From: a virus
DNA: 64,000 nt
Virus record (IMG/VR): IMGVR_UViG_3300025646_000030
Span: 6,708 to 70,707 of that record
Strand: one strand, 5' to 3'
A program made the translations under genes and the position numbers. Shown here in pieces: positions 8,847-41,633 of this stretch (position 1 is its first letter; each line of letters begins with the position of its first letter). The notes beneath the pieces are model-generated. The model saw only the letters and a list, made by a program, of their open reading frames with translations, was not told the DNA's origin and did no database searches.

Positions 8847-8886
8847 ACTGCTGCAACGTCAGATGGCCAGAGTCTAGCAACGGTGC

Positions 8887-10011: not shown

Positions 10012-10409
10012 CAGAAGGTACCGCTAGGCTTGCCGCTAAAGGTGAACGAAATCGGCACACTGACAAGGTCACCGGCACTGATGCTGGCGCCAGCCTGTGT
10101 AATCAATGCGTCCCCGGTGATGGTCCCAACAGTTGTGCTGGTATCCAGCACCATCGAAAGGGTGTTCAGGGTATCGGAATCGCTCAGCAGTCGATTGATG
10201 ACGTTTGTTGTTGCTACATCGCTCGGGTCATACAGCAGCGTGCCGCTACCTGTTGTCCCACGGATGCCGTAAGCGTATGTCCTATCTGCTTGGCCGATGC
10301 CTGTTGTTTCAAGTGCATCACGCGCGAAAGTGATGCTGACATCACGCACTTTGGCAATAGCGGCGCCCTCGTACCTGAGTTCTGCGGTAGCGCTAGTCTT
10401 AACAGCCAT
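10011..10409 (-). CDS. Tail-tube-like minor tail protein
   Basis: RDALETT.IG..R.Y..G.R..SG.LLYD pattern. Confidence 0.65.
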   Translation of the reverse strand: MAVKTSATAELRYEGAAIAKVRDVSITFARDALETTGIGQADRTYAYGIRGTTGSGTLLYDPSDVATTNVINRLLSDSDTLNTLSMVLDTSTTVGTITGDALITQAGASISAGDLVSVPISFTFSGKPSGTF

Positions 10410-25586: not shown

Positions 25587-26504
25587 TCAGGCTTTCTCAA
25601 GAACGAGAGCGCTCTTGGGGTAGTACAGCGAGAGGCCGCCGATGCGAGCGTGAGCCGCAACGGTGAACTCCAGCGCCTGACGCAGCGGAGGCAGAAACTC
25701 CAGGGGCTGCGGGATGTGCAGTTGCAGCTTGTCGGGGCTGCGGTCGTACACCACGATCCGGTCCTTGGACAGGGAACCACCCGACTTACCGGCCTCGAGC
25801 TCGTTGATCGGCTCGATCGCTTGGATCATCGGGTTGGTGCGCAGGAAGAACTCCATCACCGTGGTGTCGGAGGTGGTGCTGCGCGGGGTGGTGGAGATGA
25901 TGCGGTACACGTTGTAGGGCACCAGCATCGTGTTGGGCATCTCCTTCATGTTGCTGTTCTGCACGAGGCGGGTGGGTGCCTCGTTGAGCAGGGCCAGCAT
26001 CTCGTCGGTGGTCACACCGGCGGTGTCGAACCACTTGTCGGGGACAAGCTTGTCGACCTGGTCGTTGTTGAAGAAGCCCTTCATGCCGGAGGGGGTATCG
26101 CCGAAGTAGGCGATCTCCTGCACTTTCTCCTCGTAGGCGCGGCGCACAGCATTGGCGCGGCGCTGCTCCAGGTTCATGCCGGGCACCATGGCGGCGGCAC
26201 GGGTCTCCTGGATGGTGTAGGCGAACGAGGCGCCGAGGGAGCGGACCGGGTGGGTCACTTCCTTGCGGAGCACGTCAGCGCGGGGCAGATCCTGCGCTTT
26301 GTCGCCGATCACCTTCATCGAGCCTTGCTTGTCGAAGACTCGGTAGGTGTAGGAATCGGCGCCGTTGCCCACTTCAGAAGAAATGGGGATGAGGGAGGAG
26401 TACTTGATGTCGGCGTACTCAACCTCGAAGGTGCGAGCCAGGATTGTCTCCAGCTCGCGAGCGAGAAAGACGCCGACCTCGTCGTTACGGATTTCGGTGG
26501 TCAT
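25587..26504 (-). CDS. Major capsid protein (DUF2184/HK97 fold)
   Basis: FLARELE, IAYFGD...GFFN, GG...YYP motifs. Confidence 0.9.
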   Translation of the reverse strand: MTTEIRNDEVGVFLARELETILARTFEVEYADIKYSSLIPISSEVGNGADSYTYRVFDKQGSMKVIGDKAQDLPRADVLRKEVTHPVRSLGASFAYTIQETRAAAMVPGMNLEQRRANAVRRAYEEKVQEIAYFGDTPSGMKGFFNNDQVDKLVPDKWFDTAGVTTDEMLALLNEAPTRLVQNSNMKEMPNTMLVPYNVYRIISTTPRSTTSDTTVMEFFLRTNPMIQAIEPINELEAGKSGGSLSKDRIVVYDRSPDKLQLHIPQPLEFLPPLRQALEFTVAAHARIGGLSLYYPKSALVLEKA

Positions 26505-27145: not shown

Positions 27146-28408
27146 TTACTTGGTGGCGGTGAGGGGACGCTTCCAGGCTTCCGCCTGCTTGCTCCGGTAG
27201 GTCTCCGCCGGGGAAGCAGTACCGCGACCAGCACCTTTCAGTGCGTCGCGGAGGGAAGTGGTGCTGTCGGCGCGGTCCTCCTTGGTTTCGGGCTCATCGC
27301 CCTCCTCCTCCTCCTCGGATTCGTCCTCGTCCTCCTCGGTGTCAGCGCGGGCGGCCAGGATGCCGTCCACCACGCCTTGGATGTAGGAGGGCTCAGCGTC
27401 CTCGCGAGGGGCAGAACCGGTCAGGTTTTCGAAGGCCTGGACATAGAGGTCTTCGTTGTCCACGCCGTCGAACTTGAAGTCCTCGGCGAAGGCAGGTGCC
27501 AGCTTCTGCAGCGTGGCGAGACGAGCGGCGACGAGCTGGTCGAGCTCGGCGGTGTCAATGCGGTCGGAAGAGGAGCCGTTCTCGAGCTCGGTGACACGCT
27601 CTTCGAGGGCGTCAGCACGACCTTCGGCTGCTTCCTTTTCGTAGGCCAGGTTGTCGATCTCTTCCTGCTGAGCGTCAAGCTTGGTGGCAAGCTCGTCGCG
27701 CTCAGCAGTTACAGACTTGAGCTGGCGCTCCACGTCCCGTGCGAAGGACTGGACCGCGCTAGCTGCTTCTGCGGGCAGATCGATCTCCAGGCCGTCGAGT
27801 TTGACGGTAGCCATTACGGGAGATGCAGGTGTACAGGGCTGGAGCGCCGGATCAAAGGAGACGGCATCAGCCGCATCCATGCGATCCATGAGCAGGCGAA
27901 CCTCCGGGCCAGCCCGGCCGCGGGGGACGATCGCGATGTGATTCACCCGGATGTTGCGCTGAACGCCCTCGTAGGACTCGCCCTCGGGGGTGATACCAGG
28001 AGTGGGGTCGAAATCGACCTTGTACCCGGCAGAGACTTCAGTGGCGTCTTTGCGTTTGATCTTCTCGATGGCGTCTTGGTCAGTAACGACCAGGGCGACT
28101 TCAACAAAACCGTCGTTGTACCGGACCTGGCTACCGGAGTAGCCGACCTGGAACTGCTTGGTGTTGGCTGAATCGAGAAGAACAGGTGGGTGACCCCACG
28201 TTGCGGGCTTCATGCCGAACGTGGATAGCGATTCCGGGGAGCTCACCTCTTCAGGTGGACGATATTCCCGGACCTGGGAGCCATCCGCACGCTTGTAGAG
28301 CTGTGTGCCCGTGCGCGCCGCACGACACCAGACGCGGAGATAACCCTCGTCGGTGGTTTCGCTGCCCGTAATGGGCGCGAAATCGTAGCGAGAAACGGAT
28401 GTTTCCAT
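27146..28408 (-). CDS. Prohead protease/scaffold (DUF2213)
   Basis: EGYL, ARTG.Q.Y, EYRPPEEV, HP, E.SAGY, NHIAIV.RGRAG motifs; coiled-coil acidic C-terminal half. Confidence 0.9.
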   Translation of the reverse strand: METSVSRYDFAPITGSETTDEGYLRVWCRAARTGTQLYKRADGSQVREYRPPEEVSSPESLSTFGMKPATWGHPPVLLDSANTKQFQVGYSGSQVRYNDGFVEVALVVTDQDAIEKIKRKDATEVSAGYKVDFDPTPGITPEGESYEGVQRNIRVNHIAIVPRGRAGPEVRLLMDRMDAADAVSFDPALQPCTPASPVMATVKLDGLEIDLPAEAASAVQSFARDVERQLKSVTAERDELATKLDAQQEEIDNLAYEKEAAEGRADALEERVTELENGSSSDRIDTAELDQLVAARLATLQKLAPAFAEDFKFDGVDNEDLYVQAFENLTGSAPREDAEPSYIQGVVDGILAARADTEEDEDESEEEEEGDEPETKEDRADSTTSLRDALKGAGRGTASPAETYRSKQAEAWKRPLTATK

Positions 28409-28470: not shown

Positions 28471-28686
28471 GTGGCGATCTATCGGCAGCTTGCACTTTGC
28501 GAGCGTATTAGGCAACTAAGAATAAAGACTGGATACACTCAGTCTCAGGTAGCTGAAAAGCTTGCTATCAGTCAAGCGGCCTACTGTAGGCTTGAAAAAG
28601 GAGAGATTGAGTTCGCAGTATCAAAGCTGTTTGAGTTGGCAGATTTGTATGGGTTTCCGGCCTCGTTGTTGATCGAGGGGCTCTAG
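28471..28686 (+). CDS. XRE-family HTH transcriptional regulator
   Basis: RIRQLR...GYTQ.QVAEKL.ISQ..Y.RLEKGE. Confidence 0.85.
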   Translation: MAIYRQLALCERIRQLRIKTGYTQSQVAEKLAISQAAYCRLEKGEIEFAVSKLFELADLYGFPASLLIEGL

Positions 28687-28852: not shown

Positions 28853-29140
28853 CTACGGGGCGAAGCCTTCAGCCCAGATCGAGTCGCGCTTCAGACGGGG
28901 TTGCTCGCCATGGCCGTTGCGAGCGCGGTTGGTGGAGGGATCTTCGAGGACGGTTTTTCCGGCCTCGGTGTGGGAAACGTCAGGGCCGCCTTTGCCGTCG
29001 ATGCCACGTCTGCGGCGCTCGCGGTTGAGTTCAGCGCGGCGCTTGCGTTCCGAGGGGCGTCGGTTGATCTCCGCTTGGGCGCGTTGGCGCTTGGCCCGGG
29101 CCTCGGGATGGGAGCGGTAGTAGGCGGCGGTGGAGGTCAT
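28853..29140 (-). CDS. Basic minimal HNH-like protein with C-terminal DSIWAEGF tag
   Basis: G.GGPDVSH...NRARN pattern; Arg-rich. Confidence 0.65.
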   Translation of the reverse strand: MTSTAAYYRSHPEARAKRQRAQAEINRRPSERKRRAELNRERRRRGIDGKGGPDVSHTEAGKTVLEDPSTNRARNGHGEQPRLKRDSIWAEGFAP

Positions 29141-29143
29141 GGG

Positions 29144-30583
29144 TCAGTCTTCCCACTCGTTGACAGTGAATGGGCGCTGTCCACGTCGGGTCGTGAGCGG
29201 GCGAGGCAGTGCAGTACCGAAGGGCTGTTGACGTTCGCGAGCAAGACGCGCATCGCGCTCGGGTTTGAGGGCGAGGAAGAGACGTGCGGGTTTGACACCT
29301 AGGCGGCGGGCTTCGCTCTTAATTGCAGTGGGGCGAAACTTGAGATCACGTTCAAACGCTGCACGGTCTGTTGAGCCTCGTTGAGCGGTCAAAATCCGCC
29401 GCGTAAGCCCTGGAATTCGAGGTTGATCCAGACTGCGAACAAACCGTGAACGGGGCATGCGCCCCTCAGTCCAGAGCAGGTCGGCCTCGAGCGCGTCGTG
29501 GTACCGGTTGACCGCTACCTCGAATTTTTCCCAAGAACGACTGTAGTCACGAGCTTGTGTTTCGATATTATCAAGCACACCTTTGAAGCGGTTATCTGTG
29601 AAGTCTCTTGCGTCTGCCTCGCTATACCCGACCATTGAAGGCAATCTACGTAGATCACTTAGTAAGTTTTCGACACCATCTCGGGAATGCACTGGGTGCC
29701 TGTAATCATCGATATCAGTAGAGTAACCAAAGTCAATAATGGCAACTTTGCGGCTACGCGGCTGCACCATGATGTTGCCGCTATGAATATCGCCATGTGC
29801 GAGACCCTCGGTGTGTAGTTTGCGGAACTCGCGGAGCATTTTGACTTTGACAATCGAAGGGGCGCTAGCTGCAGTGCCATAGGCGTCTGGGTGCACAGAG
29901 TCCAGGGTCTTGTAGCCCCTCATGTGAGAAAGGATCAGCGTCTGCGACCGCACGTCACCGTATTCGTCTGTGACAGCGTTCATGCCTAATGGTTGTGGGA
30001 CGTTGACCCCTTTGCCGTGTGCTTTATCCAGGCGGTCATATTCCCAGCTGACGTCGTCATCGTCTCCGTTGCGGAATAGCTTGACGCCGTACTTCTCAGA
30101 TGGATGGACGAAGTAGGTGCCGAATGCACCTTCCCCGGCTTGGCAACGCGGGTTGGGGATCGCCGCGTCAAACTTCGCCGGGGCTGTCAGCTTTCCCAGG
30201 CCATTGCCGCACTCCATGGCGCGACGACGCGCGTTGATCTTTTCCTGTACGTCCCACTTCTGCCCACCGGCGACGGCCTCATCGGCGATTTTCCGAGCCT
30301 GCTCAGGTGTGAGCTTTTGATTATTTCGGGCGCTATCAGGTCGTGCGCGCCGTTCTCCAACGGTTAGAGGGCGTTGCTTGTTGCGTATGTGTTTAGCCAA
30401 ATAGGCACCTCCTGTTAGTACGCCTGCGGCAAGAGCCACTTTAGCTGCGGTTTGGAGGTTTGAGTTGGTAGAGGAACCCGCTTTTTTACTGCATTTATGG
30501 TTCTTGGGAATAAACGACTCACCGCACGGCTTTCCCTTCCCGCCCTCGGGGGCGTCGATCCTTACCAGGCCGAGGACTTTCCC
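29144..30583 (-). CDS. Protein kinase module (Cys motif, TM, kinase), probably expressed by -1 frameshift
   Basis: GEGAFG, VKLF, HGDIHSGN, IIDFG kinase motifs; frame entered at G GGA AAG; the only annotated upstream start is a TTG inside the previous gene. Confidence 0.85.
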   Translation of the reverse strand, partial: GKVLGLVRIDAPEGGKGKPCGESFIPKNHKCSKKAGSSTNSNLQTAAKVALAAGVLTGGAYLAKHIRNKQRPLTVGERRARPDSARNNQKLTPEQARKIADEAVAGGQKWDVQEKINARRRAMECGNGLGKLTAPAKFDAAIPNPRCQAGEGAFGTYFVHPSEKYGVKLFRNGDDDDVSWEYDRLDKAHGKGVNVPQPLGMNAVTDEYGDVRSQTLILSHMRGYKTLDSVHPDAYGTAASAPSIVKVKMLREFRKLHTEGLAHGDIHSGNIMVQPRSRKVAIIDFGYSTDIDDYRHPVHSRDGVENLLSDLRRLPSMVGYSEADARDFTDNRFKGVLDNIETQARDYSRSWEKFEVAVNRYHDALEADLLWTEGRMPRSRFVRSLDQPRIPGLTRRILTAQRGSTDRAAFERDLKFRPTAIKSEARRLGVKPARLFLALKPERDARLARERQQPFGTALPRPLTTRRGQRPFTVNEWED

Positions 30584-31545
30584 GGCGTCAGTCCGTCGCG
30601 GCGGCTCGTTTTGCCCGAGCACTTCCACTTCGCCCTGGAGAGGCAAAGCGGAGTGTTGCGGTCCTTACCACCGCAGTCCTTGCCGTGGGACTTCATGTCA
30701 CCGAAGCTACGAGCGCAGTACCGGTCGCCTTTGTCGGTGCCGGGTGCGATCTTGTAGCCCTTGGCGCCGTAGCGCACCTTGTTCTTGCGGCCGGTCTTGG
30801 GGTTGGTGACGGTCTTGCTGTACTTCTTGCCGTCCTCGGTGTCGCGGCGGGTGGGGGGTTGGAGCTGGACCGGGGCGTAGTGCTGGATGAAGTTGTCGGT
30901 GCGGCCGAAGCCGCGGGCCTTGCGGCGGCGCGGTTGACCGGTTCGGGGATCGATCGGGATGGCCTCGCGCTGCGGGGTGAGATCGCCAGCGGTCAGCTTG
31001 GGCTGGGTTCCCTGGGGTAGGCGGCGTTGATCAGGGGCGCGGTAACCGGGCTCGAACCGACGGCGGGCGGCCTCGGTGCGGAGGCGCAGCTCGCGCAGGG
31101 TCGTTTTCGCAGCCATGCCGGTGGCTTCACCGGCGGCGGCCATCGTGTTACCGATTTGCCCAAGGCGCCGAACTTCTTCCCGGGCGGTCTGGGCGATACG
31201 GCCCTCGGCGTTTTTCACAGCAGCTGCGGTGTTGGCCCGCATGCGCTGCGTTTTGGACTGACGCGGAGGTGCTGCCTTGAGCAGGGCGCGAGGTGACGAT
31301 CCGGGAAGACGCGGTGCAGGCGAAGGACCCCGGAAGCCAGGCACCGAGCTCGAGGGGCGAGCGGTTCCTGAGCGACCCCGCTTGCTCAGCGCAGCGGCAC
31401 CGAGAGCGAGGGCACCGGCGGTCAAACCAATACCAGTAGCGATGGCGACTTTGGTGGCAGGGCCTTTTGTACATTTTTCGCCCTCGGAGATAGCTCCTTT
31501 GCCGCACTTGAGGTCGAGGCGTAACGCACTCGGGGTCAGTGTCAT
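30562..31545 (-). CDS. Modular basic protein (Cys motif, TM, C-terminal VRYG..YCAR..WKC domain)
   Basis: Starts MTLTPSALRLDLKCGKGAISEGEKCTKG. Confidence 0.8.
   Translation of the reverse strand: MTLTPSALRLDLKCGKGAISEGEKCTKGPATKVAIATGIGLTAGALALGAAALSKRGRSGTARPSSSVPGFRGPSPAPRLPGSSPRALLKAAPPRQSKTQRMRANTAAAVKNAEGRIAQTAREEVRRLGQIGNTMAAAGEATGMAAKTTLRELRLRTEAARRRFEPGYRAPDQRRLPQGTQPKLTAGDLTPQREAIPIDPRTGQPRRRKARGFGRTDNFIQHYAPVQLQPPTRRDTEDGKKYSKTVTNPKTGRKNKVRYGAKGYKIAPGTDKGDRYCARSFGDMKSHGKDCGGKDRNTPLCLSRAKWKCSGKTSRRDGLTPGKSSAW
30577..30583 (-). other. Candidate -1 frameshift heptamer G GGA AAG
   Basis: In frame, four sense codons before the stop of 30562-31545; the -1 frame is the kinase ORF. Confidence 0.65.
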
Positions 31546-32894
31546 AGCCCTAGTGCCTCCCAGTCGATGTCGAAACCATCGGCGTAGACGGAGTCGAGCT
31601 TGCCGCGTCGGCGCATAATCTCCTGGTATGCGGCGTTGATCTGCTGAGCCTTGCGAGGATCGCCGCCAGCGTCAGGGTGATTCTGGCGCATCAGCTGGAG
31701 CCACTTCTTCTTGATGTCGGCATCTGAGGCGGTCTCGGGTATATCGAGGTCTTTGAAAGGATTCTCGACGGCCTTGTTAGCCCCAACGTTGCGGCTGCCC
31801 TGACTGCCAGAAGCTGCGTTCTGCTTTGCACGTTGCTGTGCCTGCTCACGAGCTGCGTTCCACTGGCGTTTGTAGTTCTCGGCACCCATGACCCACTCAG
31901 CCTCTTTGGAGACCAGTTGGGTACGAGCACGGCGAGCTCCAATGAAGTTCCCCGCACCTAAATACATCAAAGTGCCGCCAGCCATAATGGCTCCGGCCTG
32001 CCTTTTCTTGGGTTCTTTGGCGTACTCGTTGGCTATTACACCGGCGCCTGCGATACCTAAGCCGGCGCCGGCAATTTCACCTGCGCGTGCGATACCACTG
32101 AGCTCCTGAAATACCTTCTTTCCCTGTGCAATTCCTTCATCTGGAGTCGCGCCTTTGCCCAGAGGTCTTGAAGCAATACGCTTTGCTGAACTATATTTTG
32201 CAACGCCCAGCGCAAGTCCCCCGAGGGCGGCGGCACCGCCGACACCAAGAGCTACATTGCGAATGGTGTTGTTTTCTTTTGACTTGGCTTTAGTGGCAGG
32301 ACCTTTGGTACATTTTTCGCCCTGGGAGATGGCGCCTTTGCCGCATTTGAGGTCTTGCCTTACTGCTTTAGGGGATAACGCTGAATCTGTGCGTCTCATA
32401 AATTTGTCAAAAGCATCTGGATCTTTAGCTAGCTCTCCTAACTCCTCGAAGGTCATAGCTCTACTTTTAAATGCGTCTTGAAACTTTTTGCTTTTGACTA
32501 CGTCTCGTATGGCTGCGCGCTTTGCCTTGTCGGCTTGCATTGCATGAGCTACTTCTTGCGGATTTTCTCGTACCCGGCGCTGGGCAGATTCCACGGCACG
32601 TTTACCTAAAGATTCAGCCTTGGCTCGGCGTGCTGCGATGGCAGCTGGATCGCGCGGGGGTGGCTTAGGAGGGGTCTTGGGGATATTCGGCACAGTGCGC
32701 TCATCCCCACCTCGAGGCTTTCTCCCTCGGCGGCGCAGCGCAATAGCCCCTGCGGCTAAACCCAAGCCAAGAGCGATAGGTGCAACTTTCTCAACAACCT
32801 CTTGAGCAGCGCCCTTAGTGCACTTTTCGCCCTTAGAAATTGCGCCTTTGCCGCATTTCAAGTCGTTCCTGACCGTACTCGGAGTAAGGGCCAT
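31542..32894 (-). CDS. Two-module protein with C-terminal DnaJ (J) domain
   Basis: Two LKCGKGAISxGEKCTKG units; NPFKDL.I...IKK.W..L...NHPD.GG...INAAY. Confidence 0.85.
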   Translation of the reverse strand: MALTPSTVRNDLKCGKGAISKGEKCTKGAAQEVVEKVAPIALGLGLAAGAIALRRRGRKPRGGDERTVPNIPKTPPKPPPRDPAAIAARRAKAESLGKRAVESAQRRVRENPQEVAHAMQADKAKRAAIRDVVKSKKFQDAFKSRAMTFEELGELAKDPDAFDKFMRRTDSALSPKAVRQDLKCGKGAISQGEKCTKGPATKAKSKENNTIRNVALGVGGAAALGGLALGVAKYSSAKRIASRPLGKGATPDEGIAQGKKVFQELSGIARAGEIAGAGLGIAGAGVIANEYAKEPKKRQAGAIMAGGTLMYLGAGNFIGARRARTQLVSKEAEWVMGAENYKRQWNAAREQAQQRAKQNAASGSQGSRNVGANKAVENPFKDLDIPETASDADIKKKWLQLMRQNHPDAGGDPRKAQQINAAYQEIMRRRGKLDSVYADGFDIDWEALGL

Positions 32895-32897
32895 CGC

Positions 32898-33857
32898 TCA
32901 CATCCCCAGTTGGGCGTAGTCGACTTTGAAGCCTTTTGCGTACATGCCGTCTTTGTAGCCGACGCTCTTGCGCCATTTCTTCTCTTTCTTCTCGTTAATC
33001 GCGTGTTGTTGAAGATCTGTGTTGCCAAAGGCGCCTACACGACGAGCGGCACCAAAGCCAGCTTGCGGACCGAACACCAGTGTAGAAGCAGCTACAGATG
33101 CGACTTTACCTGCGGTACTACCTTTTTCGTTTTTACCGCCTGTCATCCCTGTTGCCAGAGTTTTGCCGATGTTGTAGCCAGAGGTCCACTTAACCGTCTC
33201 TAGTGCGCCACGGCCAATACCTTTAGCGACTTGGCCTGCTTGAACAAGTGCGCTTGGACCTTGGGCTTTTTGTGATTTAACAGGGTCTAATTTACCTGTT
33301 TTTTGATTAAACGATGAATACTCCATCAGCTTACCCGACTTGGACGTGCGAGCAGCTATTTGTTGAGCGGCACGAATTTTAGGGTCTACCTTTTGCGCTG
33401 GACCCTTCGTGCATTTCTCGCCTTGAGAAATGGCGCCCTTGCCACATTTAAGGTCAAGGCGCTCTGCAGCGTCCAGTCGGGCTCGGATGTAAGAGCGGCT
33501 ACGTCCCTGGATGCCGAGATCGCAGGCAGCGAGGTATTCCTGCGGGGTCAAGGCGTCGTTGCGGTCCATCTTCTTGCCGCAGTTCCCATCGCACTTGCCT
33601 TTGCCCTTGCGGCCGCCGCATCCGCAGCCTTCGCCGTCCATGGGCTTCTTGCCGTACATCCCGCCGTCCATCGGCTTCTTGCCGTACATGCCGCCGTCCA
33701 TGGGGGCCTTGGTCTGCTTGGCCCCCTTTGCGGAGCGCTTGCGGTTGGTCTTGCCTTTTGGCATAGGCATTTCCTGATCGTCCTCGCCCTCGCGGATCTC
33801 GTCCGGGCCAGCCTCCATCTCCATTGGCGGGCGCTTTTTCATGGAAGAGGCAGGCAT
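32898..33857 (-). CDS. Modular Lys/Gly/Met-rich protein with Cys motif
   Basis: KKPMDGGMYG repeats; RLDLKCGKGAISQGEKCTKG; C-terminal DGMYAKGF. Confidence 0.8.
   Translation of the reverse strand: MPASSMKKRPPMEMEAGPDEIREGEDDQEMPMPKGKTNRKRSAKGAKQTKAPMDGGMYGKKPMDGGMYGKKPMDGEGCGCGGRKGKGKCDGNCGKKMDRNDALTPQEYLAACDLGIQGRSRSYIRARLDAAERLDLKCGKGAISQGEKCTKGPAQKVDPKIRAAQQIAARTSKSGKLMEYSSFNQKTGKLDPVKSQKAQGPSALVQAGQVAKGIGRGALETVKWTSGYNIGKTLATGMTGGKNEKGSTAGKVASVAASTLVFGPQAGFGAARRVGAFGNTDLQQHAINEKKEKKWRKSVGYKDGMYAKGFKVDYAQLGM
33632..33704. repeat. 30-bp tandem repeat (~2.4 copies) coding PMDGGMYGKK
   Basis: cgccgtccat(g/c)ggcttcttgccgtacat(c/g)c repeated. Confidence 0.9.
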
Positions 33858-33895
33858 GACTACAAGGCGGGACGCCTACAAGCGATGTGCTCAGG

Positions 33896-34777
33896 TTACC
33901 GCTGTTGTGATACGGGAGTCGGGGCGATCTGCTCAAAAACCGCTGCGCGGTTTAGGGATACACCCGATGCACTCACACGAGCCTGCGCATCTCGGACTTC
34001 GTCGCGGTGCCGTTCTCGGGAGGCGGCGTAATCCGGGTCCATATTGGCGACTTCGGCATCCCACGGCGCGAGGTAACAGCGACAGCGCGGGTGCAGAGGA
34101 ACACGAATATCTTGCCTACGATAAATGTGCCCTGCGCGAGGTACGCATAAAGGGCATGCTCTATCGTCAGCAGTGGCGTAATACATCACAAGCTCAATGC
34201 CCTGCGCTGCGTAGTACGTATTGGATGCATCGTTGTACGCACGAAGCGATTCGGTGCGCACGATCGCTTCAGCACGGGATTTCACCACGCTGAGGCGAGA
34301 GCGCAGGTCCTGGACCATGGCGTCAGTGGGTCGGCCTTCGGCAACACCTTGGGCGACGGTGAAGGCAGCGGTCTGGGCGAACTTCTCACCGTGTCTGCGT
34401 AGGTAGCCCTTGGCTTGGGCAGCAGCGGCGTAGGTCGCTTCGAGAGGGATGGAGACGTCAACGCGAGGCCCTGTCTTCACCTGACTGGTGAGCTCATCAG
34501 CGACGGTCAGGCCGTAGCGAGATGACGTGCCCGCGAGGTTGCGCAGGATGCGGTCATAGGCGTCCACCGCGTTGGGGTTGAACACTGGGATCAACATGCG
34601 GAACTCCTGGAGCAGGACCAGGTTTCGGCTCACGGGGTCGGCGTAGCCGATCCGCATATGCACCCGAGCGCGGCGAACCAGGCGGTTGAAACTCGCGTCC
34701 AGTACGCGATTCAACATAGTGATGGTGCCGTTCTCAGAGGTGCGCAGCAGTGCGTTGTAGCGCTCAAGTAGGTTCAT
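33896..34777 (-). CDS. Minor head morphogenesis protein (Mu gpF/SPP1 gp7 family)
   Basis: RAEAIVRTE, D.RAC.LC, PLHPRCRC motifs. Confidence 0.9.
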   Translation of the reverse strand: MNLLERYNALLRTSENGTITMLNRVLDASFNRLVRRARVHMRIGYADPVSRNLVLLQEFRMLIPVFNPNAVDAYDRILRNLAGTSSRYGLTVADELTSQVKTGPRVDVSIPLEATYAAAAQAKGYLRRHGEKFAQTAAFTVAQGVAEGRPTDAMVQDLRSRLSVVKSRAEAIVRTESLRAYNDASNTYYAAQGIELVMYYATADDRACPLCVPRAGHIYRRQDIRVPLHPRCRCYLAPWDAEVANMDPDYAASRERHRDEVRDAQARVSASGVSLNRAAVFEQIAPTPVSQQR

Positions 34778-37700
34778 GCGGCTAGTAAACGAGCGCGCTG
34801 AAACTGATAGGCAATAGTATATGCATCCCCGCGGTCACTCTTATTAGTTGCTTTAGCTGATGGACTTACTTGCTTTTCTAGGTCTTTACGAATCTGCTTT
34901 TGAGCGTTCTTAACACGATTGGCGTTGTAACCACCATACCAAGTTTCAATCATTCTGTCTTCAATCTCAGAGCGGATGCGTGCTTTGGTCGCTTCGCGTT
35001 GTGTCGGTGATTTAAGTGCAGCTGTGTATTCTTTCATTTTACTGGCAGCGTTATCCCCGAATAAAGTGTTTAGATCACCTTCCATGGGTTTGTTTTCACT
35101 AACTCGCCATACGAGTTCATTGAGAAGCTCGCCGGAGCGCTTCCTATCGACGTTCAGGTAGGACCAGGCTTCTCGCTGTAACTGCTTGTCGTACAGGTAG
35201 CTATTGCCCTCAGCTAAGTTTTGCTTCCAATTAGCTCCGTACTCTCGGTTATTTTTATCTATCTTTTCTGTGAGGCCATGCGGGATATTGTCATTGTTAA
35301 GTATACGGGTGTTTCCACCGGTGAAAGCCGCTCCTCCTGAAATCTTGTAGAAATCGTCGCCTTTGCTCACCCAAGTGCGCATGTTGTCGTCGCTATGACT
35401 GAACATCCCGAATGTGGGGCCTGCTACATTGACTACTTTCACATCGCGATAACCCATATCGTGCAGAATAGCTAGTGTTTCACTTGCTACATTGCCTCCA
35501 TTACTGTAGGACAAAATGTCTACGGGTTTACCAGTTAAACGGCGTTGAGCTACTACAAAAGCAGCGGCGCGGACAGCGTCAGGATTAAAACCTCGCTCGT
35601 CCACGTTTTTCCGTAAGTACTTAAAGCGGTCTTGTATGTCTTTAATACTATGCATAGCTTTAGCTGCTCCTTTGGCTTGCTCCCCTAGCCCTATAGCTGA
35701 GCCTAGTTTCTCCGCACTGCGAACAAAGGCTTCACGTTCTCGGACAACTAGATCATCAGGCACAGACGTAGTGGGCTGTGAAATGTTGTTGGCGTAAGGG
35801 AGTATGTCTCTGTCTCCCCAAATTTGACTGAATGCCTTGGCTTTAGCCAGCATGTGGCTACCTTGACCACGGTGCGTGAACTTATTGTCGTCTGCGTAGG
35901 ACAGCATTACGACAGCACCTTTACTATTAGGTGTCTGTCCATACCAAGCTGGTTCAGTATCGTTTGAACTAAATCCACGGTCTTGACCTTTGTCCTTAAA
36001 GTTGTAGACAGACGCTTCGAAATCACTGACTTCGTTCGGCTTTTTATTAAGACGTCTAGCAGCTCGCTCGCGGAATTGACGTTCCATCTCCACGGCTAGT
36101 TTTTCAGCTTCGATCGCTGACTTGGCAACATTTTTGCGATATGCGGAGATCTTGGCTCGCTTTGTGCCTAATACGGCTATTGCAGCAGCTCCCCCTGTAA
36201 CGGTCAGCGCTCCTGCGACAACCTTTGCTGTACTTAAATTGGACTTCTGCTCGGGTGCAGTTGCATTTGTATTAGGCTTTGCACTGGTTGTCTTAGTGCA
36301 CTTATAGTTATCGGGAATCGCAGACTGACCACACCGCTTGTCAACGCGAAATTCATGCAAATCTACAGCGTCGTTACGAATTAAGTCCGCAATTTGCTCA
36401 ATATGATTATCCCCCATTCTTGTGAACTTCCCTTTTGTTTTCATAGCAAACAGACGCTCATCGGAAGACAACGCTTGCCGAAAACCATATTTCTCGTAGA
36501 TCGAGCGGCGTTTCTTCCCTTTATTATCGTTAGCATAAGGAATGGCGGTTATGATTGAGTTGTCAGGGATCTGTTCCATCTGAGATTGGAACATTTTCTT
36601 CACTGTAGATGCTACACCTCTTGCATTACGTGACGCTGCAGGCGACTTGGCGTCAAATTCACCATCCACCCGAAATTGAGTGGAGTATGCGCGAGCTCCA
36701 CCAATGCTATCTTGAGGTTTCGTGTTATAGATAATCAAAGTTTCACCAACAGATCCTGTACTCAGTAGAGTTCCGTCCTCCATCTGCCAGTTACTAAAGT
36801 TGTCTTTATTGTTAACGGATGTAATCCGCCCACCTTTTGCCTTAAGAGCCAAGTGCGCTGCGCTAACCTTGGCATCTCCTACTAAGCGGCGCACAGGCTC
36901 TTGGAAGTTCTTGGGAAGACGACTTATTCCGGTATCTACTTCTGCAGTAGATAGTGTTTTAATAGTACGTTTGCTTAATTCAGCAACTGTCTGCTGAGTC
37001 TGAGTGCGCACTACATTGTTCGCTACACGACGACCAGCGCGAGCTCGTACAGCAGTACGACGGTAAAGCTCCCGATTATTCGTGCGCAGAGATCGCCGCG
37101 CCTGTAGTGTCCCCTGTCGGGCTGTCCGTGCGATTGTCTTACGATTGCGTACTGCTCCTACAACAGAAGCAACACCCCCTGCAACAGCTGCAATTTTAGC
37201 TGCTTTATCTAAAGCCCCACCGCCTGACTTTAGATGGCAAGTTGATGTCGGCGGAATACATAAGTTTCCGCATTTCTGATTGGGAGGAAAGCATGTGAGA
37301 CCGGGCTGTGCTGCTCCTTTTACACGGTTAGCAGCTTCCTCAGATTGAGGAGGTGTGTTCTTAGTGCATTTTGCTTTTTCGGGAATACCAGACTTGCCGC
37401 AACGCTTATCTAGTCGAGCAACTGTCTCTAAGTAAGCTGCAACTCGAGGTGTGAAATGTTGTTCTTCGTCGTCGCGATTGCCATACTGAGCGCGGCGGCG
37501 CTCGTACTCGGCTTGAGCTGCTTCTCGGGTGGCGTAACGCGGTGTGCCGTCAGGGTTCTTCTGACGCATCATCGATGCGATGACTTGGGCAGGGGTGCGC
37601 CGACGCGCGGGGCGGCCGCCCGCGGGGGCGGGTGTTTGCGGTTGGGGCTTACGTCGTCGAGGACCCGGGCGGATCTCGATCTCCGCAGAAGTGAAACCGT

Positions 37701-39261
37701 ACTCGGTCTTGAGTAGCTGGATCGCTTGTGCGGGGGTCAGTTGTTGCTTACCTGAAAGCTCCCTGGCTGCTTGTACCGCAAGCCGATCGGTAATGGTATA
37801 GGGGGACTTGCCTGTGCCTGCTACTTTTGTATGGTAGTAATCAAGAAGAAAAAGTGCGTCATGTTCTGCACCTTTGCTCACGGTGTTTGGCTTAGTGCTT
37901 GTTTGCATTAAGTAATCTATACGCCTACGTTCTGCCGCTTTGCGTAGCTCTAATAGTCCGGGTTGTTCCGCTATTACATTTTTTTCAAACTGTTCACGCT
38001 CAGCACGCGGACGGTCAAAGGCAGGTGCATCTGCTGCTTGGATGAGGCTTTTGCTCTGCTCTTTGTAGTATTTATCGAAAAATTCGACATGGCCATTATA
38101 GATCTCTCGTGCGGCGGAGCTAGGCGCGAGATTACGTATAACTGTGTCTACATACTTGGCATGCGCGGCACGTTGTCTTTCGTTAGTGATCGCTCTTGTG
38201 GATCGACTAACGAAGGCGTCGCGCTGGTTGCTATCGATGTACTGCGCACCTGGACGTCCGAGCACCTTGAACCCTTGCTGCTTGGCTAGCTGCAGAAATG
38301 CATCCCGATCGGATTCGATTCTATCCGTGATAGCATTGACATAGTCTGCTCCTATTGTTGTTGGCGATAAGTTTAAATTCCATTCTGTATTCATAAAAGC
38401 GTGAGCAGTCGGGACTGCAAATACACTTGTCCCGTCTTTGTGGGTAGCTCCCCAGAATGCTGTGCGGTGCTTTGTATTCCATTCGTAAAACGTATTAGAA
38501 CTACCTTGATTATCAACAACTTTTAGGGCTGCGTTTAAACTACTGCTCCCGGCTACCCAGCTACGTGGGATCGTAGTGGCGGGAATGCCGGACTCGGGAT
38601 TCGCGGCGTAGCTCCTGTTGCGCTGAGTGCGCCCAGCAATGCGAGAAAGATTTCTAGCTTCTGCACTGGCTGCTCGGCTGCGCGTATAGGCGCGCGCTTG
38701 TCCTATGAATGGAGTTCGGTCCAGGATCGCTCCGATTCCCTGCGCCACTGCGTAATCGATTTTGGCGCCAGCACCCTTGCGATAACCAAAAACGTCTCCA
38801 GCTTTAAGGCCGCTATGAAGAGCAAGCCCTCCAGCTACGACTGAGACAGGTATTACTACCTTGGACCAGTTGTTTTCTACCCATTCTTTGAATTCACCTT
38901 TTTCTTTTAATGTACCAGGCTTAAGCTTGACAGCCCCGCGTACAAATGAGCGCTTGCTCGATTCCAGCTCAGAAAAACTGCCGGTACGAGCAAAACGACC
39001 TAAACGCTTAATTCCCCGTTCTATGTTTGCAATGCCACTTACTGGATCTGTTCTCTTTGCTGCAAGATGAGGATCATTGCCTTGACCCTTTAAGCGACAG
39101 TTCCATTCAGGTGGGATACACCTGTTACCGCACTTAACGTTGGGTGGATTGCACTGTACTAAAGTGCGCGTTTTGCCTGTGCGGAAGTCCAATCGCTGCT
39201 TAGTCGCAAGATAAGCGGCGGCGCGGGCCTGCGCTGCATCAATCGGGGTCTTCTCGTCCAT
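34774..39261 (-). CDS. 1495-aa multi-module protein (4 Cys motifs, 3 hydrophobic helices, GNAT-like and alpha/beta-hydrolase-like domains)
   Basis: See findings; SYSNGG nucleophile elbow; RRSIYEKYGF. Confidence 0.8.
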   Translation of the reverse strand: MDEKTPIDAAQARAAAYLATKQRLDFRTGKTRTLVQCNPPNVKCGNRCIPPEWNCRLKGQGNDPHLAAKRTDPVSGIANIERGIKRLGRFARTGSFSELESSKRSFVRGAVKLKPGTLKEKGEFKEWVENNWSKVVIPVSVVAGGLALHSGLKAGDVFGYRKGAGAKIDYAVAQGIGAILDRTPFIGQARAYTRSRAASAEARNLSRIAGRTQRNRSYAANPESGIPATTIPRSWVAGSSSLNAALKVVDNQGSSNTFYEWNTKHRTAFWGATHKDGTSVFAVPTAHAFMNTEWNLNLSPTTIGADYVNAITDRIESDRDAFLQLAKQQGFKVLGRPGAQYIDSNQRDAFVSRSTRAITNERQRAAHAKYVDTVIRNLAPSSAAREIYNGHVEFFDKYYKEQSKSLIQAADAPAFDRPRAEREQFEKNVIAEQPGLLELRKAAERRRIDYLMQTSTKPNTVSKGAEHDALFLLDYYHTKVAGTGKSPYTITDRLAVQAARELSGKQQLTPAQAIQLLKTEYGFTSAEIEIRPGPRRRKPQPQTPAPAGGRPARRRTPAQVIASMMRQKNPDGTPRYATREAAQAEYERRRAQYGNRDDEEQHFTPRVAAYLETVARLDKRCGKSGIPEKAKCTKNTPPQSEEAANRVKGAAQPGLTCFPPNQKCGNLCIPPTSTCHLKSGGGALDKAAKIAAVAGGVASVVGAVRNRKTIARTARQGTLQARRSLRTNNRELYRRTAVRARAGRRVANNVVRTQTQQTVAELSKRTIKTLSTAEVDTGISRLPKNFQEPVRRLVGDAKVSAAHLALKAKGGRITSVNNKDNFSNWQMEDGTLLSTGSVGETLIIYNTKPQDSIGGARAYSTQFRVDGEFDAKSPAASRNARGVASTVKKMFQSQMEQIPDNSIITAIPYANDNKGKKRRSIYEKYGFRQALSSDERLFAMKTKGKFTRMGDNHIEQIADLIRNDAVDLHEFRVDKRCGQSAIPDNYKCTKTTSAKPNTNATAPEQKSNLSTAKVVAGALTVTGGAAAIAVLGTKRAKISAYRKNVAKSAIEAEKLAVEMERQFRERAARRLNKKPNEVSDFEASVYNFKDKGQDRGFSSNDTEPAWYGQTPNSKGAVVMLSYADDNKFTHRGQGSHMLAKAKAFSQIWGDRDILPYANNISQPTTSVPDDLVVREREAFVRSAEKLGSAIGLGEQAKGAAKAMHSIKDIQDRFKYLRKNVDERGFNPDAVRAAAFVVAQRRLTGKPVDILSYSNGGNVASETLAILHDMGYRDVKVVNVAGPTFGMFSHSDDNMRTWVSKGDDFYKISGGAAFTGGNTRILNNDNIPHGLTEKIDKNNREYGANWKQNLAEGNSYLYDKQLQREAWSYLNVDRKRSGELLNELVWRVSENKPMEGDLNTLFGDNAASKMKEYTAALKSPTQREATKARIRSEIEDRMIETWYGGYNANRVKNAQKQIRKDLEKQVSPSAKATNKSDRGDAYTIAYQFQRARLLAA

Positions 39262-41132
39262 CAGTACTGCTCCCAGCCGACGCGGAGGGCTTCAGCTTCG
39301 CCCTCGGAAACAGGGGAGAGCCCAGCTACATTCTGCCGTGGGTAGAAAGAAGCGACAGCCCGCTTGGCCGCCTGCGGCGTACGGAAGCCGATGGTGTACG
39401 GACCTTCGACGAGCTCGCCTTGATGATCGAACCGGGCTCGGTGAAGTTTGCGCCCGTGAGCGCGCTGGGGGCCAATGATGAACATCGGTGCATGACCCTG
39501 AGCGTCGATCCGTTGCCCATCAGGAGAAACAAGAGCGCCAATGCGGCTTCCATCTTTCTGAGCAGCAACACGGATCCGGTAACCATGCGCCTGATGGAAC
39601 TCGAGGGAGTCGAAGGCGAAGCGGGGATCTTCTTGTGGCGCTTCTTGCGCCGCCGCTGGATCAACTTCCACTTCGTCGGGTGGCGCACCCTGAGGATTCT
39701 CACCGGGCGCTCCCCCTGCCCCCATGAGCTGAGGGTTTTGTAGCGCTTGTGCTTGAGCTTCCATATTCATCATCTGCATTTGGAAGTCCGCTTCAGCCTT
39801 CACCTGCATCTGTTCGCTGAACTGTTCGTCCAACGTGGTTTCGATGCTGTACTCCGTCCCTCCGAAGCGGGCCTCGCGGATCTCGAGTGGGTTCAGCACG
39901 CCCATGTTCACGTATTGCGAGTCCACCTGAGCCATCTGCAGGCGCAGCTCAGCCTTCTCCTTGTCGGTTTCAGTGAAGACGCTCGGGAAGTGGACGCTCC
40001 ACTTCTGCGGGGGCCGTCCTCGGGTTGGTCCTTCGCGCGAGGCGAGGATGTAGGTGAAGACCTCAGTGACCGCGGTACGGCAGTAGAGCTCCTGCCACTG
40101 CTCCACCAGCGAGGCCCAGACTCGCTCCTCGAAGCGGCCTTCCTTGCCCAGGCCGCCCGGGGAGTCGCCCATCAGGATCGAAGCGGGCCAGCCGGTGGCC
40201 GCTTGGAGATCCTTCACGAAGGGATCGGTCGCCGAGGCGATGTTGCTCAGGGCTCGGTTGAGGAACTGCAGCTCCTCCTCCACGTCGACCACCATGCCGC
40301 CGTAGACGCTGCGGCTGAGGTTGTTGGCCTCCAGGCGCTTGCGTAGATCGGCCTCGTTGCCGGATGCGATCCGGTTGAACAGGCCAGGGATCTTGTGGAC
40401 GAACAGGTCCGAGTCGGTGGTCATCGACTCGAGGCCAGACAGGGCGCTCTCGTAGCGCTTATAGGCCTCCCACACGAGCTGGAGAACCGGCAGGCCCCAT
40501 CCGGTGTTCCGTGCTCGGACGTTCCAGGGGAGGTAGAGCCCGTCGAAACGTGCCACGCGGGATGCGTGGATGCGCACATTGACATAGCCGCTGGTCTGCT
40601 CGGGCGACACCCGCTGGGATGTCGTGATCCGGTAGTGCGACGGCTTGCTGTAGTCGATGATCGAGAAGTCCTCGGGGATCAGCTCGTGCCGAGACAGGGG
40701 GATGTACCCCCGCACGGAGCGGATCCGGGCGAGATCGGCAGGTTCCTCAGGTGGGAGGCCGTCATCGATGAGCAGGACCAGGCCGGCGCCGCCGTAGAGG
40801 CGCTGCAGCTTGACGACCTCGGCGAAGGCGTGGTGGAACTGCGTGGCCTTGAGGTACTCCTCGAAGATGGAGATCAGATCGTTGGCGTCGTCCTGCTCAT
40901 CGCCACCGAGCTTGATCGTGACCAGGTGGCGCAGGATCTCATCTGAGATGGTGTCGACGTAGCGCCGTGGGATGCCGTGAATGTAGAGGGCTTCGAGCTC
41001 GGCCTCGGAGAGGATGGGCTTGGCACCGACGGAAGTAGCAACCGTTTTGTCCTTGGTTGCTACTCCCATCCCGGACAGTACATTTACTAACGCACCATCG
41101 TTCCGGTAAGTATCAGCATTCGTCGTATCCAC
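39261..41132 (-). CDS. Portal protein (DUF1073) with C-terminal extension
   Basis: RLYGGA, IHASRV.RFDG, GWG, P.SILMG.SPGGL motifs. Confidence 0.9.
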   Translation of the reverse strand: MDTTNADTYRNDGALVNVLSGMGVATKDKTVATSVGAKPILSEAELEALYIHGIPRRYVDTISDEILRHLVTIKLGGDEQDDANDLISIFEEYLKATQFHHAFAEVVKLQRLYGGAGLVLLIDDGLPPEEPADLARIRSVRGYIPLSRHELIPEDFSIIDYSKPSHYRITTSQRVSPEQTSGYVNVRIHASRVARFDGLYLPWNVRARNTGWGLPVLQLVWEAYKRYESALSGLESMTTDSDLFVHKIPGLFNRIASGNEADLRKRLEANNLSRSVYGGMVVDVEEELQFLNRALSNIASATDPFVKDLQAATGWPASILMGDSPGGLGKEGRFEERVWASLVEQWQELYCRTAVTEVFTYILASREGPTRGRPPQKWSVHFPSVFTETDKEKAELRLQMAQVDSQYVNMGVLNPLEIREARFGGTEYSIETTLDEQFSEQMQVKAEADFQMQMMNMEAQAQALQNPQLMGAGGAPGENPQGAPPDEVEVDPAAAQEAPQEDPRFAFDSLEFHQAHGYRIRVAAQKDGSRIGALVSPDGQRIDAQGHAPMFIIGPQRAHGRKLHRARFDHQGELVEGPYTIGFRTPQAAKRAVASFYPRQNVAGLSPVSEGEAEALRVGWEQY

Positions 41133-41312: not shown

Positions 41313-41633
41313 ATGCTGGACCACCACATCGATGGGTCCCATCTCTGCTCAAAACGCTTTGCCAAGCTGCGATTTCGCCAGGACATCCTGAGCTCGTGGG
41401 GTGAGTGCTGCGCCTACTGCGGCGCACCGGCCGGCACTCTTGACCACGTCCGTGCGCGTAGACGCGGTGGGCCGACGACCCGCCGCAACCTCGTTGCCGC
41501 CTGCGCTCCGTGCAACCAGGCGAAAGGCTCTGAGGATTGGCGGGCCTGGTTCAGGGCGCAGTGCTTCTGGGATGCGCAACGAGAGGACGCGATCTACGAG
41601 TGGATGGGGGCTGCGAGGATCGAACTCGCCTGA
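41313..41633 (+). CDS. HNH endonuclease
   Basis: CAYCG, TLDHV...GG, NLVAAC..CN..KG. Confidence 0.9.
   Translation: MLDHHIDGSHLCSKRFAKLRFRQDILSSWGECCAYCGAPAGTLDHVRARRRGGPTTRRNLVAACAPCNQAKGSEDWRAWFRAQCFWDAQREDAIYEWMGAARIELA

Follow-up and report, generated by a model that had tools for sequence, protein, structure and literature searches.

Polyvalent proteins are long polypeptides joining unrelated enzymatic domains; the main text of the paper describing them places their genes in terminase-portal phages, beside those for the portal, MuF and the virion, and predicts that the proteins are packaged and injected (Iyer et al., 2017; PMC5512222). The internal proteins of phage T4 and its Alt protein are diverse cargo with nothing in common but a capsid targeting sequence that the prohead protease cuts off at L-x-E, and the ejection proteins of SPN3US are cut at A-x-E (PMC3012670; PMC7411985). 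The MuF polymorphic toxins of temperate phages carry variable toxin-like C-terminal domains, exchanged by recombination, in the head module by the portal (Jamet et al., 2017; PMC5576092). The locus described here lies in a 64 kb window, the whole stretch of DNA analyzed, of the 70.7 kb virus record IMGVR_UViG_3300025646_000030, which is rated complete. Five open reading frames (ORFs) of the window, p1495, p319, p450, p327 and p500, lie between the genes for the portal and the DUF2213 prohead protease and contain all nine copies of a Cys motif, CG-x3-I-x5-C, here called the knuckle. Nearly every effector domain of this cassette was preceded by a conserved junction, which appears to comprise, in order, a short helix ending in R-x-D, the 12-residue Cys knuckle, a polar linker and, in most cases, an Ala/Gly-rich helix of weak hydrophobicity between basic flanks. 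The analysis consisted of sequence comparison and predicted structures. From these we give an even chance to the reading that the cassette encodes polyvalent, mosaic head-module effectors that are loaded into the head, the junction serving as an incorporation and cleavage signal joined to a conditionally membrane-active helix. The effectors would most likely be loaded into the prohead and leave it with the DNA.

Similar to the polyvalent proteins, the cassette lies beside the portal, MuF and virion genes of a terminase-portal phage, its long polypeptides join unrelated enzymatic domains, such as module X and the hydrolase of p1495, and two family members carry the ART-PolyVal and InPase domains. 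Different from the polyvalent proteins as described in that main text, a Cys knuckle, usually with a weak helix, introduces nearly every domain here, and none of the 150 representative motif proteins contains Phage_Mu_F (PMC5512222). In addition, no LPD-type family of Pfam matched the window proteins. Similar to the cargo of T4, SPN3US and phiKZ-like phages, the putative cargo is diverse and has a common short terminal peptide, which would end at a consensus tripeptide recurring in scaffold and capsid proteins, a role that is proposed here for R-x-D. The protease, however, belongs to another family (DUF2213), the signal is repeated inside polyproteins, and a Cys knuckle and a hydrophobic helix follow it (PMC3012670; PMC7411985). 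With the MuF polymorphic toxins the cassette shares variable, toxin-like C-terminal domains exchanged by recombination in the head module by the portal. Here, however, MuF is a separate 293-residue protein to which none of the 150 motif proteins is fused, no immunity genes were noticed, and the lineage is probably not temperate, since it is essentially absent from cellular genomes (PMC5576092).

The knuckle pattern matched exactly nine times in a six-frame translation of the window, always on the minus strand and at the coordinates listed by the initial annotation, a reading of the bare sequence. In 300 block shuffles the pattern matched 0.3 times on average and at most 3 times, and chance or an artefact of GC-rich sequence was thus ruled out. 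The four CGKGAIS copies with their flanks were identical at 18–19 of 20 residues, and 6–14 of the 20 codons differed synonymously. So many synonymous changes at a constant peptide point to selection on the peptide and to no recent duplication of the DNA. The two four-Cys versions also matched their earlier description. An R-x-D was found within 25 residues upstream of eight of the nine copies, as had been noted, and directly before six of them (positions -5 to -3); the copy with no R-x-D nearby is the second four-Cys copy. The knuckles and the hydrophobic helices of the window, with types A to C as defined below, Kyte-Doolittle hydropathy (KD) where calculated and AlphaFold2 (AF2) predictions where given, are as follows.

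30491–30526, minus strand: type B motif in p500
30395–30451, minus strand: helix of p500
31471–31506, minus strand: type A motif in p327
31393–31449, minus strand: helix of p327
32820–32855 and 32310–32345, minus strand: two type A motifs in p450
32742–32798 and 32199–32255, minus strand: the helices of p450
33411–33446, minus strand: type A motif in p319
39097–39153 (12-residue core 39097–39132), minus strand: type C (four-Cys) knuckle of p1495, residues 37–55, C-x6-CG-x2-C-I-P-P-x-W-x-C
38803–38859, minus strand: helix in the N-terminal domain of p1495, residues 135–153, KD 1.53, AF2 helix at 132–154
37366–37401, minus strand: type A knuckle of p1495, residues 621–632, RLDKR-CGKSGIPEKAKC
37237–37293 (core 37237–37272), minus strand: second type C (four-Cys) knuckle of p1495, residues 657–675
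37150–37206, minus strand: Gly/Ala-rich helix of p1495, residues 686–704, followed by RNRK
36298–36333, minus strand: type A knuckle of p1495, residues 977–988, RVDKR-CGQSAIPDNYKC
36166–36222, minus strand: Gly/Ala-rich helix of p1495, residues 1014–1032, followed by TKRAK, KD 1.93

A total of 615 motif copies were counted in 250 related proteins, with one to six copies each, and fell into three subtypes whose short forms are R-x-D-L-K-CGKG.IS (type A), GKP-CG.S[HF]IPK (type B) and the four-Cys form (type C). The consensus of type A was R(97%)-x-D(100%)-[KL]-[KR]-C-G-K-[SG]-x-I-[PS]-x-x-x-K-C-[TS]-K-G and that of type B was G-K-P-C-G-x-S-[H 62%/F 26%]-I-P-K-x-[H 57%]-x-C; of the 204 type B copies, 105 had His or Cys at +4 as well as +9, and 52 had neither there. 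Type C read C-x-P-P-N-x-x-C-G-x-R-C-I-P-P-x-W-D-C-R-L-K-G; its four Cys were 100% conserved among 181 unique copies, and 170 of its 205 copies were located at residues 20–60 of giant proteins. At position 5, type C has Cys, type B frequently His and type A Ala or Ser, a pattern that suggests a small metal-binding hairpin, degenerate in type A. AF2 placed a beta-hairpin (42–44/47–49) in the type C knuckle of p1495, with a predicted local distance difference test (pLDDT) of 69–79. No Pfam (E ≤ 0.1), PHROGs or NCBIfam family was found for p327, p319 or the motif regions, and no Pfam family recurred over the motif in 150 relatives. The initial impression that the unit had no description agreed with its absence from these three databases and from the main text of the polyvalent-protein paper, a text that nowhere uses "transmembrane", "cysteine", "TM helix" or "Zn-ribbon" (PMC5512222). 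No printed description of the knuckle-helix unit was found in the literature searched, on which the supplements of that paper, with its 131 domains, may bear, as they lay outside this check (PMC5512222).

The motif was essentially confined to phage head modules, as the initial annotation would lead one to expect. A profile built from 51 module segments (alignment A1, 51 of 56 found) retrieved 558 clusters (50% identity, E ≤ 1e-3) among 1.84 billion representatives and, from a 5.8-billion set, 542 proteins at E ≤ 0.01 among 8000 scored candidates. Two degenerate DNA patterns matched at least 119 and at least 120 viral contigs. Across 596 Gb of cellular genome sequence the same patterns yielded just 6 and 17 stretches, where the genuine matches were L019, L020, L037 and perhaps L030, all of them small contigs of metagenome-assembled genomes (MAGs); matches in Cupriavidus, Marinobacter, Nocardia and Bifidobacterium were off-frame chance matches and were rejected. 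The family occurred almost exclusively in viral contigs of one siphophage lineage, with the context read for a minority of the 558 clusters. Of 167 viral loci, 155 had a tblastn match to the giant protein, 136 to the portal, 127 to MuF and 99 to p319. The type C knuckle followed the portal match by 30–129 nucleotides in 134 of 135 loci. Since these loci had been retrieved by the motif, 40 further loci were fetched by the portal alone, of which 5 were too short; the type C knuckle lay just after the portal in all 35 usable ones. Outside this lineage, the 105 kb viral contig L206 encodes a divergent protein (8001–10286) with four knuckles, N-S-Q-P-CGDSHIPDGHQC-H-V-G, that lacks both R-x-D and a hydrophobic helix; its gene immediately precedes those of a Mu-like head protease and the capsid protein. 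The knuckle thus predates the knuckle-plus-helix unit and is more widely distributed. A protease search returned 993 clusters at 90% identity, and all 120 matches listed were at least 78% identical to the window protein. This phage group is very abundant in the environment and uncultured.

The genes of the head module are arranged on the minus strand in the order terminase, portal, p1495, MuF, p319, p450, p327, p500, p95, DUF2213 protease-scaffold, cement-like protein and major capsid protein. The identities given earlier to the flanking genes were borne out by Pfam. The cassette genes and their neighbors are listed below.

39261–41132, minus strand: portal (Phage_portal_3/DUF1073), 623 residues; Pfam PF06381 at 5.6e-53, phrog_146 at 7.5e-84
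34774–39261, minus strand: p1495, giant mosaic protein with an all-alpha N-terminal domain (residues 1 to ~600), module X and a lipase-like alpha/beta-hydrolase
36367–36972, minus strand: module X, alpha/beta, residues ~764–965 of p1495; AF2 pLDDT above 90
35146–35928, minus strand: lipase-like minimal alpha/beta-hydrolase by predicted fold, residues 1112–1372 of p1495
33896–34777, minus strand: stand-alone MuF-like minor head protein, 293 residues; PF04233 at 1e-12, phrog_115 at 9.7e-25
32898–33857, minus strand: p319, conserved, after MuF; type A knuckle, no hydrophobic helix, C-terminal tail ..KDGMYAKGFKVDYAQLGM
31542–32894, minus strand: p450, two type A units and a C-terminal J-domain (31620–31757; DnaJ PF00226 at 4e-7), tail ..KLDSVYADGFDIDWEALGL
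30562–31545, minus strand: p327, type A unit, basic region and Cys-rich C-terminal domain; zero-frame product of the frameshift pair
29144–30646, minus strand: p500, type B unit, then a protein-kinase-like domain (~29597–30136); APH at 4.3e-10, Kdo at 1.6e-7, Pkinase at 9.5e-6
28853–29140, minus strand: p95, small basic protein, C-terminal ..KRDSIWAEGFAP; phrog_6437 at 2.4e-26
27146–28408, minus strand: DUF2213 prohead protease with a scaffold-like C-terminal half; PF09979 at 1.1e-41, phrog_530 at 1.2e-86
25587–26504, minus strand: major capsid protein, 305 residues, with R6-N-D8 near the N-terminus; phrog_264 at 4.1e-81

Five effector types had been named in the initial annotation, one of them a putative basic nucleic-acid-binding-like domain. 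The kinase and the J-domain were recovered with Pfam; the alpha/beta-hydrolase is backed by its predicted fold only, and the GNAT-like assignment is weak. The hydrolase fold matched Lip_vut1 and Bacillus subtilis LipA with a VIA Z of 12.9 and a root-mean-square deviation of 2.7 Å over 156 residues, the top 50 rows of that search were all alpha/beta hydrolases, and its S-Y-S-N-G-G reads as a nucleophile elbow. Module X, the commonest module of the family (121 of 250 motif proteins), may be GNAT-like, as Foldseek returned GNAT acetyltransferases at a probability of 0.84–0.87 and an E of 0.06–0.09. p1495 itself, with four knuckle motifs and three hydrophobic helices, had no Pfam or PHROG family. 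Its AF2 models had a pLDDT of 83.7 (the all-alpha N-terminal ~600 residues) and 80.2. Residues 1–610 had no usable ESM Atlas match, PDB sequence searches with its two C-terminal parts gave nothing below an E of 0.0087, and the fold of the N-terminal 620 residues gave a best Foldseek E of 0.3 (PDB) and 0.029 (BFVD) and a VIA-wide best Z of 6.6 to helical hairpins only, so that no structural partner was found by these searches, which covered the fold as a whole and do not establish a new one.

The domains were more diverse in the relatives. The Pfam scan of 150 representatives of the 558 clusters identified LRAT in 22, Pkinase in 16, DnaJ in 8, NlpC/P60 in 7, ADPrib_exo_Tox in 3, ATLF in 2, ART-PolyVal and InPase in 1 each, several lipases and one poly(A)-polymerase plus HD. 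Relatives join kinase, LRAT, ART and other domains in proteins of 900–2200 residues. p319 also contains a tandem P-M-D-G-G-M-Y-G-K-K repeat at residues ~45–100 (33560–33720) and, upstream of its knuckle, an extra Cys cluster, GCGCGG..KCDGNCGKK, whose end G-[NS]-C-G is kept in many relatives. The C-terminal domain of p327 (residues ~240–327; 30562–30830) is basic and Cys-rich, K-K-Y-S-K-T-V-x-N-P-x-T-G-R-K...C-L-S-R-A-K-W-K-C, and recurs in many relatives, sometimes within 1700-residue fusions (P0065); no family was found for it.

The R-x-D was as closely tied to the knuckle in the family as in the window. It occurred within 25 residues upstream of 182 of 184 type A, 183 of 204 type B and 147 of 205 type C copies, compared with 163 of 1250 random windows, and its spacing and context were fixed; in type B it read Y-L-x-x-R-x-D-[FA] at -13/-14. 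R-x-D was also enriched in the DUF2213 protease-scaffold proteins of three lineages (observed vs. expected 9 vs. 2.6 in the window, 7 vs. 1.9 in Synechococcus phage S-CBS4 and 10 vs. 2.6 in L207), by 3.5–3.8-fold, although these scaffold proteins are homologous and the three counts are not independent. The protease-scaffold coordinates compared were 27146–28408 of the window, 14239–15384 of L015 and 1795–3036 of L207. The sites at R176, R264 and R379 were invariant between the window and S-CBS4 at 42% identity, and one of them immediately follows the protease domain. In each of the three lineages, an R-x-D was also present at residues 5–14 of the capsid protein. Tail proteins of the window were depleted of it (0 vs. 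4.0 in the J-like protein), and the lineage with the Mu-like protease had no enrichment (3 vs. 1.9) and none before its knuckles. Because R-x-D is enriched and conserved in scaffold and capsid proteins, it may be the cleavage motif of the DUF2213 prohead protease, a proposal that we judge evenly balanced. Some of the R-x-D sites, however, lie inside the protease domain itself. A complex prediction of protease residues 1–200 with the p319 junction scored 0.14 and 0.00 against a mark of 0.32 and counts neither way; its alignments comprised the window, 33 of 42 filtered proteases and 6 loci (A8) and 43 of 61 segments (A9).

R-x-D also occurs near the ends of cassette proteins. p327, p450 and their relatives share the N-terminus M-[AT]-LTPS-x-x-R-x-D, and the M-A-L-T-P-S start of stand-alone ORFs corresponds to R-x-D-S-A-L-[TS]-P in internal copies. 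Moreover, many small cassette proteins of the p95, p319 and p450 types end in R-R-D-S-[IV]-[YW]-A-x-G-F. In the window, the shared tail (R/K)-x-D-[SG]-[IVM]-[YW]-A-x-G-F is encoded at 28853–28888 (p95), 32898–32951 (p319) and 31542–31595 (p450), in proteins that are otherwise unrelated, and may be a second handling signal.

A Gly/Ala-rich hydrophobic 19-mer was found within 70 residues after seven of the nine window motifs, corresponding to six distinct helices; the first four-Cys copy has its helix 79 residues on, and p319 has none. In the family, type B copies were followed by a helix within 70 residues in 173 of 205 cases, type A copies in 108 of 177 and type C copies in 38 of 205. The 294 helices were composed of 37.5% Ala, 16% Gly, 15% Val and 11% Leu. 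Their KD was 1.2–1.9, and their summed Hessa-type insertion energy, on a scale without position terms, had a median of +2.5 and was negative in 3.4%. Both flanks were basic, with a mean charge of +1.8 for the N-flank and +2.4 for the C-flank; of the 294 helices, 143 had the more positive charge on the C-flank and 95 on the N-flank. The tape measure protein (15617–21271) has two Ala/Gly-rich helices of this composition towards its C-terminus (residues 1674–1727). Given the weak insertion energy, the two basic flanks and the likeness to the tape measure protein, the helices are read as marginal and conditionally inserting, not as ordinary anchors. Thus, of the membrane anchor originally proposed, the helix is present but its hydrophobicity is only weak, and the argument by the positive-inside rule for a cytoplasmic effector is weak, both flanks being basic and the C-flank bias slight. 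The signal-arrest-release (SAR) domains of endolysins and pinholins are likewise Ala/Gly-rich, weakly hydrophobic helices that can be in or out of the bilayer. SAR domains are N-terminal, N-in and joined to periplasmic enzymes, whereas the cassette helices are often internal, have two basic flanks and are joined to enzymes mostly of cytoplasmic type.

The kinase ORF p500 is probably made as a p327-p500 fusion. The two ORFs overlap by 85 nucleotides (30562–30646, minus strand), and the overlap contains the following signal.

30577–30583, minus strand: slippery heptamer G_GGA_AAG in the p327 frame, with the zero-frame stop at 30562–30564, four codons on

A -1 slip at this heptamer leads into the p500 frame, where the ORF is 479 codons long. 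The predicted -1 product, ...TPGK-VLGLVRIDAPEGGKGKPCG, has the same protein register as L009 and L010, in which the fusion is in frame; L009 carries one extra G. A sequencing error behind the p327/p500 split was ruled out, as the heptamer, the early stop and the long -1 ORF were kept in 13 further distinct loci. Together with the window, 14 distinct junction sequences keep ACGCCGGGAAAG with a stop 2–6 codons on. In phage lambda, a programmed -1 frameshift at G_GGA_AAG in the overlapping late genes G and T yields a short zero-frame product and the long fusion GT. Similar to this pair, the cassette site has the identical heptamer, overlapping late genes and a predicted short zero-frame product and long fusion. 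Different from lambda, the site lies in effector genes instead of tail chaperone genes, and the fusion is hard-wired in some relatives (L009 and L010).

A mechanism can be proposed from these features, of which the link between R-x-D and the protease and the -1 frameshift site are additions to the initial annotation. By analogy with the capsid targeting sequence of T4, the N-terminal domain of the giant protein and the shared N- and C-terminal peptides would act as incorporation signals. Inside the head, the DUF2213 protease would then cut the polyproteins at R-x-D into single knuckle-helix-enzyme units, a step that the enrichment and conservation of R-x-D leave equally poised between right and wrong. 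After ejection, the marginal helices may insert into or associate with the inner membrane and so hold the enzymes at the entry site, namely the kinase, the DjlA-like J-domain and the lipase and, in relatives, LRAT/NlpC, ART and metalloprotease domains. The frameshift at G_GGA_AAG, of which the signal was observed, would set the ratio of p327 to the p327-kinase fusion. It is possible, though we would sooner doubt it than assert it, that the junction as a whole is a three-part address label of a kind not described before, combining an incorporation signal, a protease-release signal and a conditionally inserting helix, by which polyproteins are cut and their enzymes planted on the host inner membrane where the DNA enters, at a dose set by frameshifting.

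Several observations weigh against loading of these proteins into the head or against parts of the junction proposed for it. The type A knuckle has two Cys only and the AF2 model of the type A junction of p1495 at residues 977–988 has a pLDDT below 50, so the knuckle may be a linear motif instead of a fold. The helix is not obligatory, being missing in p319 and in divergent relatives such as P0177, so that the earlier description of tag and anchor as one unit fits the usual pairing but not these proteins. No convincing stimulatory RNA structure was found 5–9 nucleotides after the frameshift heptamer; the only shared 5-bp hairpin lies ~22 nucleotides downstream and overlaps the conserved D-A-P-x-G codons. 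In L207, which belongs to another DUF2213 lineage, the motif protein is encoded ~3 kb downstream of the capsid gene, outside the slot between portal and protease. Moreover, the group has no known cultured member, and tblastn of p1495 against 50,697 phage records gave no match. The slot between portal and protease of S-CBS4, its nearest relative in culture (39% portal identity), contains glycosyltransferases, a methyltransferase, an HNH endonuclease and a repressor. As these are non-structural genes, the position alone is no proof of packaging.

The filling of the S-CBS4 slot leads to the explanation that fares best among the alternatives, although we consider it unlikely. The cassette would be a moron-like accessory region whose products are not packaged but act in the producing cell as enzymes tethered to the inner membrane by an N-out/C-in anchor, with the Cys loop oxidized in the periplasm, for example in host takeover, superinfection exclusion or remodeling of the envelope before lysis. 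The third-position GC would suit such a region, being 0.44 in p1495 and 0.52–0.60 in p450, p500 and p319 compared with 0.76–0.87 in the portal, terminase and capsid genes, which suggests a different history or a different constraint. On the other hand, the giant protein is fixed beside the portal (35/35) and its gene overlaps the portal and MuF genes, which is atypical of a moron. The J-domain had its best match to the membrane-anchored co-chaperone DjlA (3.9e-5, under the cut-off), and the stand-alone units have N-tails of 32–36 residues before the helix, fitting tail translocation without a signal peptide; internal units of polyproteins of 1000–1700 residues, however, cannot all be N-out/C-in unless they are cleaved. 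The more positive mean of the C-flank fits the required topology, but the bias is weak among individual helices, and with so few insertion energies below 0 the helices are too weakly hydrophobic for efficient insertion by the translocon. In addition, ART-PolyVal and InPase, which are predicted-packaged domains, are present in family members. Taken as a whole, the tag, membrane anchor and cytoplasmic effector model of the initial annotation keeps its interchangeable domains and its confinement to the head module, and its anchor, topology and single unit are weakened.

The cassette is polymorphic and mosaic, and the motif joins interchangeable enzyme domains; on this point the initial annotation agreed with the identity blocks and with the Pfam scans of relatives. 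In the 167 loci, the median identity was 91% for the capsid protein, 82% for the protease and 33% for the giant protein. The 31 complete cassettes ranged from 4.8 to 10.2 kb and had 3–7 motifs; the window cassette, with 10.85 kb and nine motifs, is at the top of the range, and L232 likewise has nine motifs. Identity to P0009 changed near the junctions, from 60–86% to 86–98% and then to 32–74%, and modules X and H combine freely (P0009: X 95%, H 54%; P0005: X 87%, H 95%). The junctions thus double as breakpoints of module exchange. Alignment A6, filtered at 80% identity, comprised the window and 53 of the 115 N-terminal segments, and alignment A7 the window and 56 chosen proteins of 250. These breakpoints and the free combination of X and H could also mean that the unit has no targeting role and is a structural spacer, a metal or disulfide knuckle with a flexible linker, that serves mainly as a recombination joint. 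The predicted disorder of the type A junction and the occurrence of the knuckle with and without a helix fit such a spacer. We nevertheless find it improbable, as the synonymous divergence of 6–14 in 20 codons leaves little DNA identity for homologous recombination and the peptide is selected, the invariant R and D before the motif and the K at +10 and +13 are hard to square with a mere spacer, and stand-alone proteins retain the unit at their N-terminus.

A DNA-delivery channel, in which the helices form glycine-zipper pores alongside the tape measure protein and the lipase and LRAT/NlpC domains breach the envelope, has similarly little to commend it: the helices, rich in small-xxx-small, do resemble the tape measure helices at residues 1674 and 1709, a match to Gly-zipper_YMGG (3.6e-4) occurs in one relative and the lipase, Tle3-like and NlpC/P60 domains are membrane- or wall-directed, but a tape measure protein that normally fills this role in siphophages is present, the targets of the kinase, J-domain, ART and poly(A)-polymerase-like domains lie in the cytoplasm, and the content of 3–9 units per phage is too variable for an essential channel.

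The head genes form a single late operon, since they overlap or abut; the portal stop overlaps the start of p1495, and p1495 in turn overlaps the MuF gene on its other side. The tail is of the siphovirus type, with the 1884-residue tape measure protein, a J-like protein and fibers. Two small ORFs lie on the opposite strand.

28471–28686, plus strand: 71-residue ORF between p95 and the protease, which reads as XRE/Cro-type helix-turn-helix-like
41313–41633, plus strand: 106-residue ORF between terminase and portal, with an HNH endonuclease-like Cys/His pattern (by eye)

In S-CBS4, an annotated "transcriptional repressor" has a place and orientation equivalent to the first of these. A cyanophage origin, as the host of S-CBS4 would have it, was set aside because close relatives in cellular genomes were found only in Rubrivivax and Burkholderiaceae MAG bins. 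These bins are weak evidence of a betaproteobacterial host.

If the knuckle-helix unit makes proteins passengers of the head, it would provide a portable tag, with its own release site and a membrane-targeting helix, for foreign proteins, as the capsid targeting sequence of T4 has been used. The R-x-D link, if true, would for the first time hint at what the widespread DUF2213 prohead proteases recognize, and the p327-p500 junction would be a second natural use of the lambda-type G_GGA_AAG frameshift. The polyvalent-protein literature, as represented by the main text of the paper describing these proteins, is silent on processing and cellular destination, and the cassette makes both testable (PMC5512222). 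If the proposed mechanism holds, the cassette would also open an entry into the early host-takeover repertoire of very abundant uncultured environmental phages.

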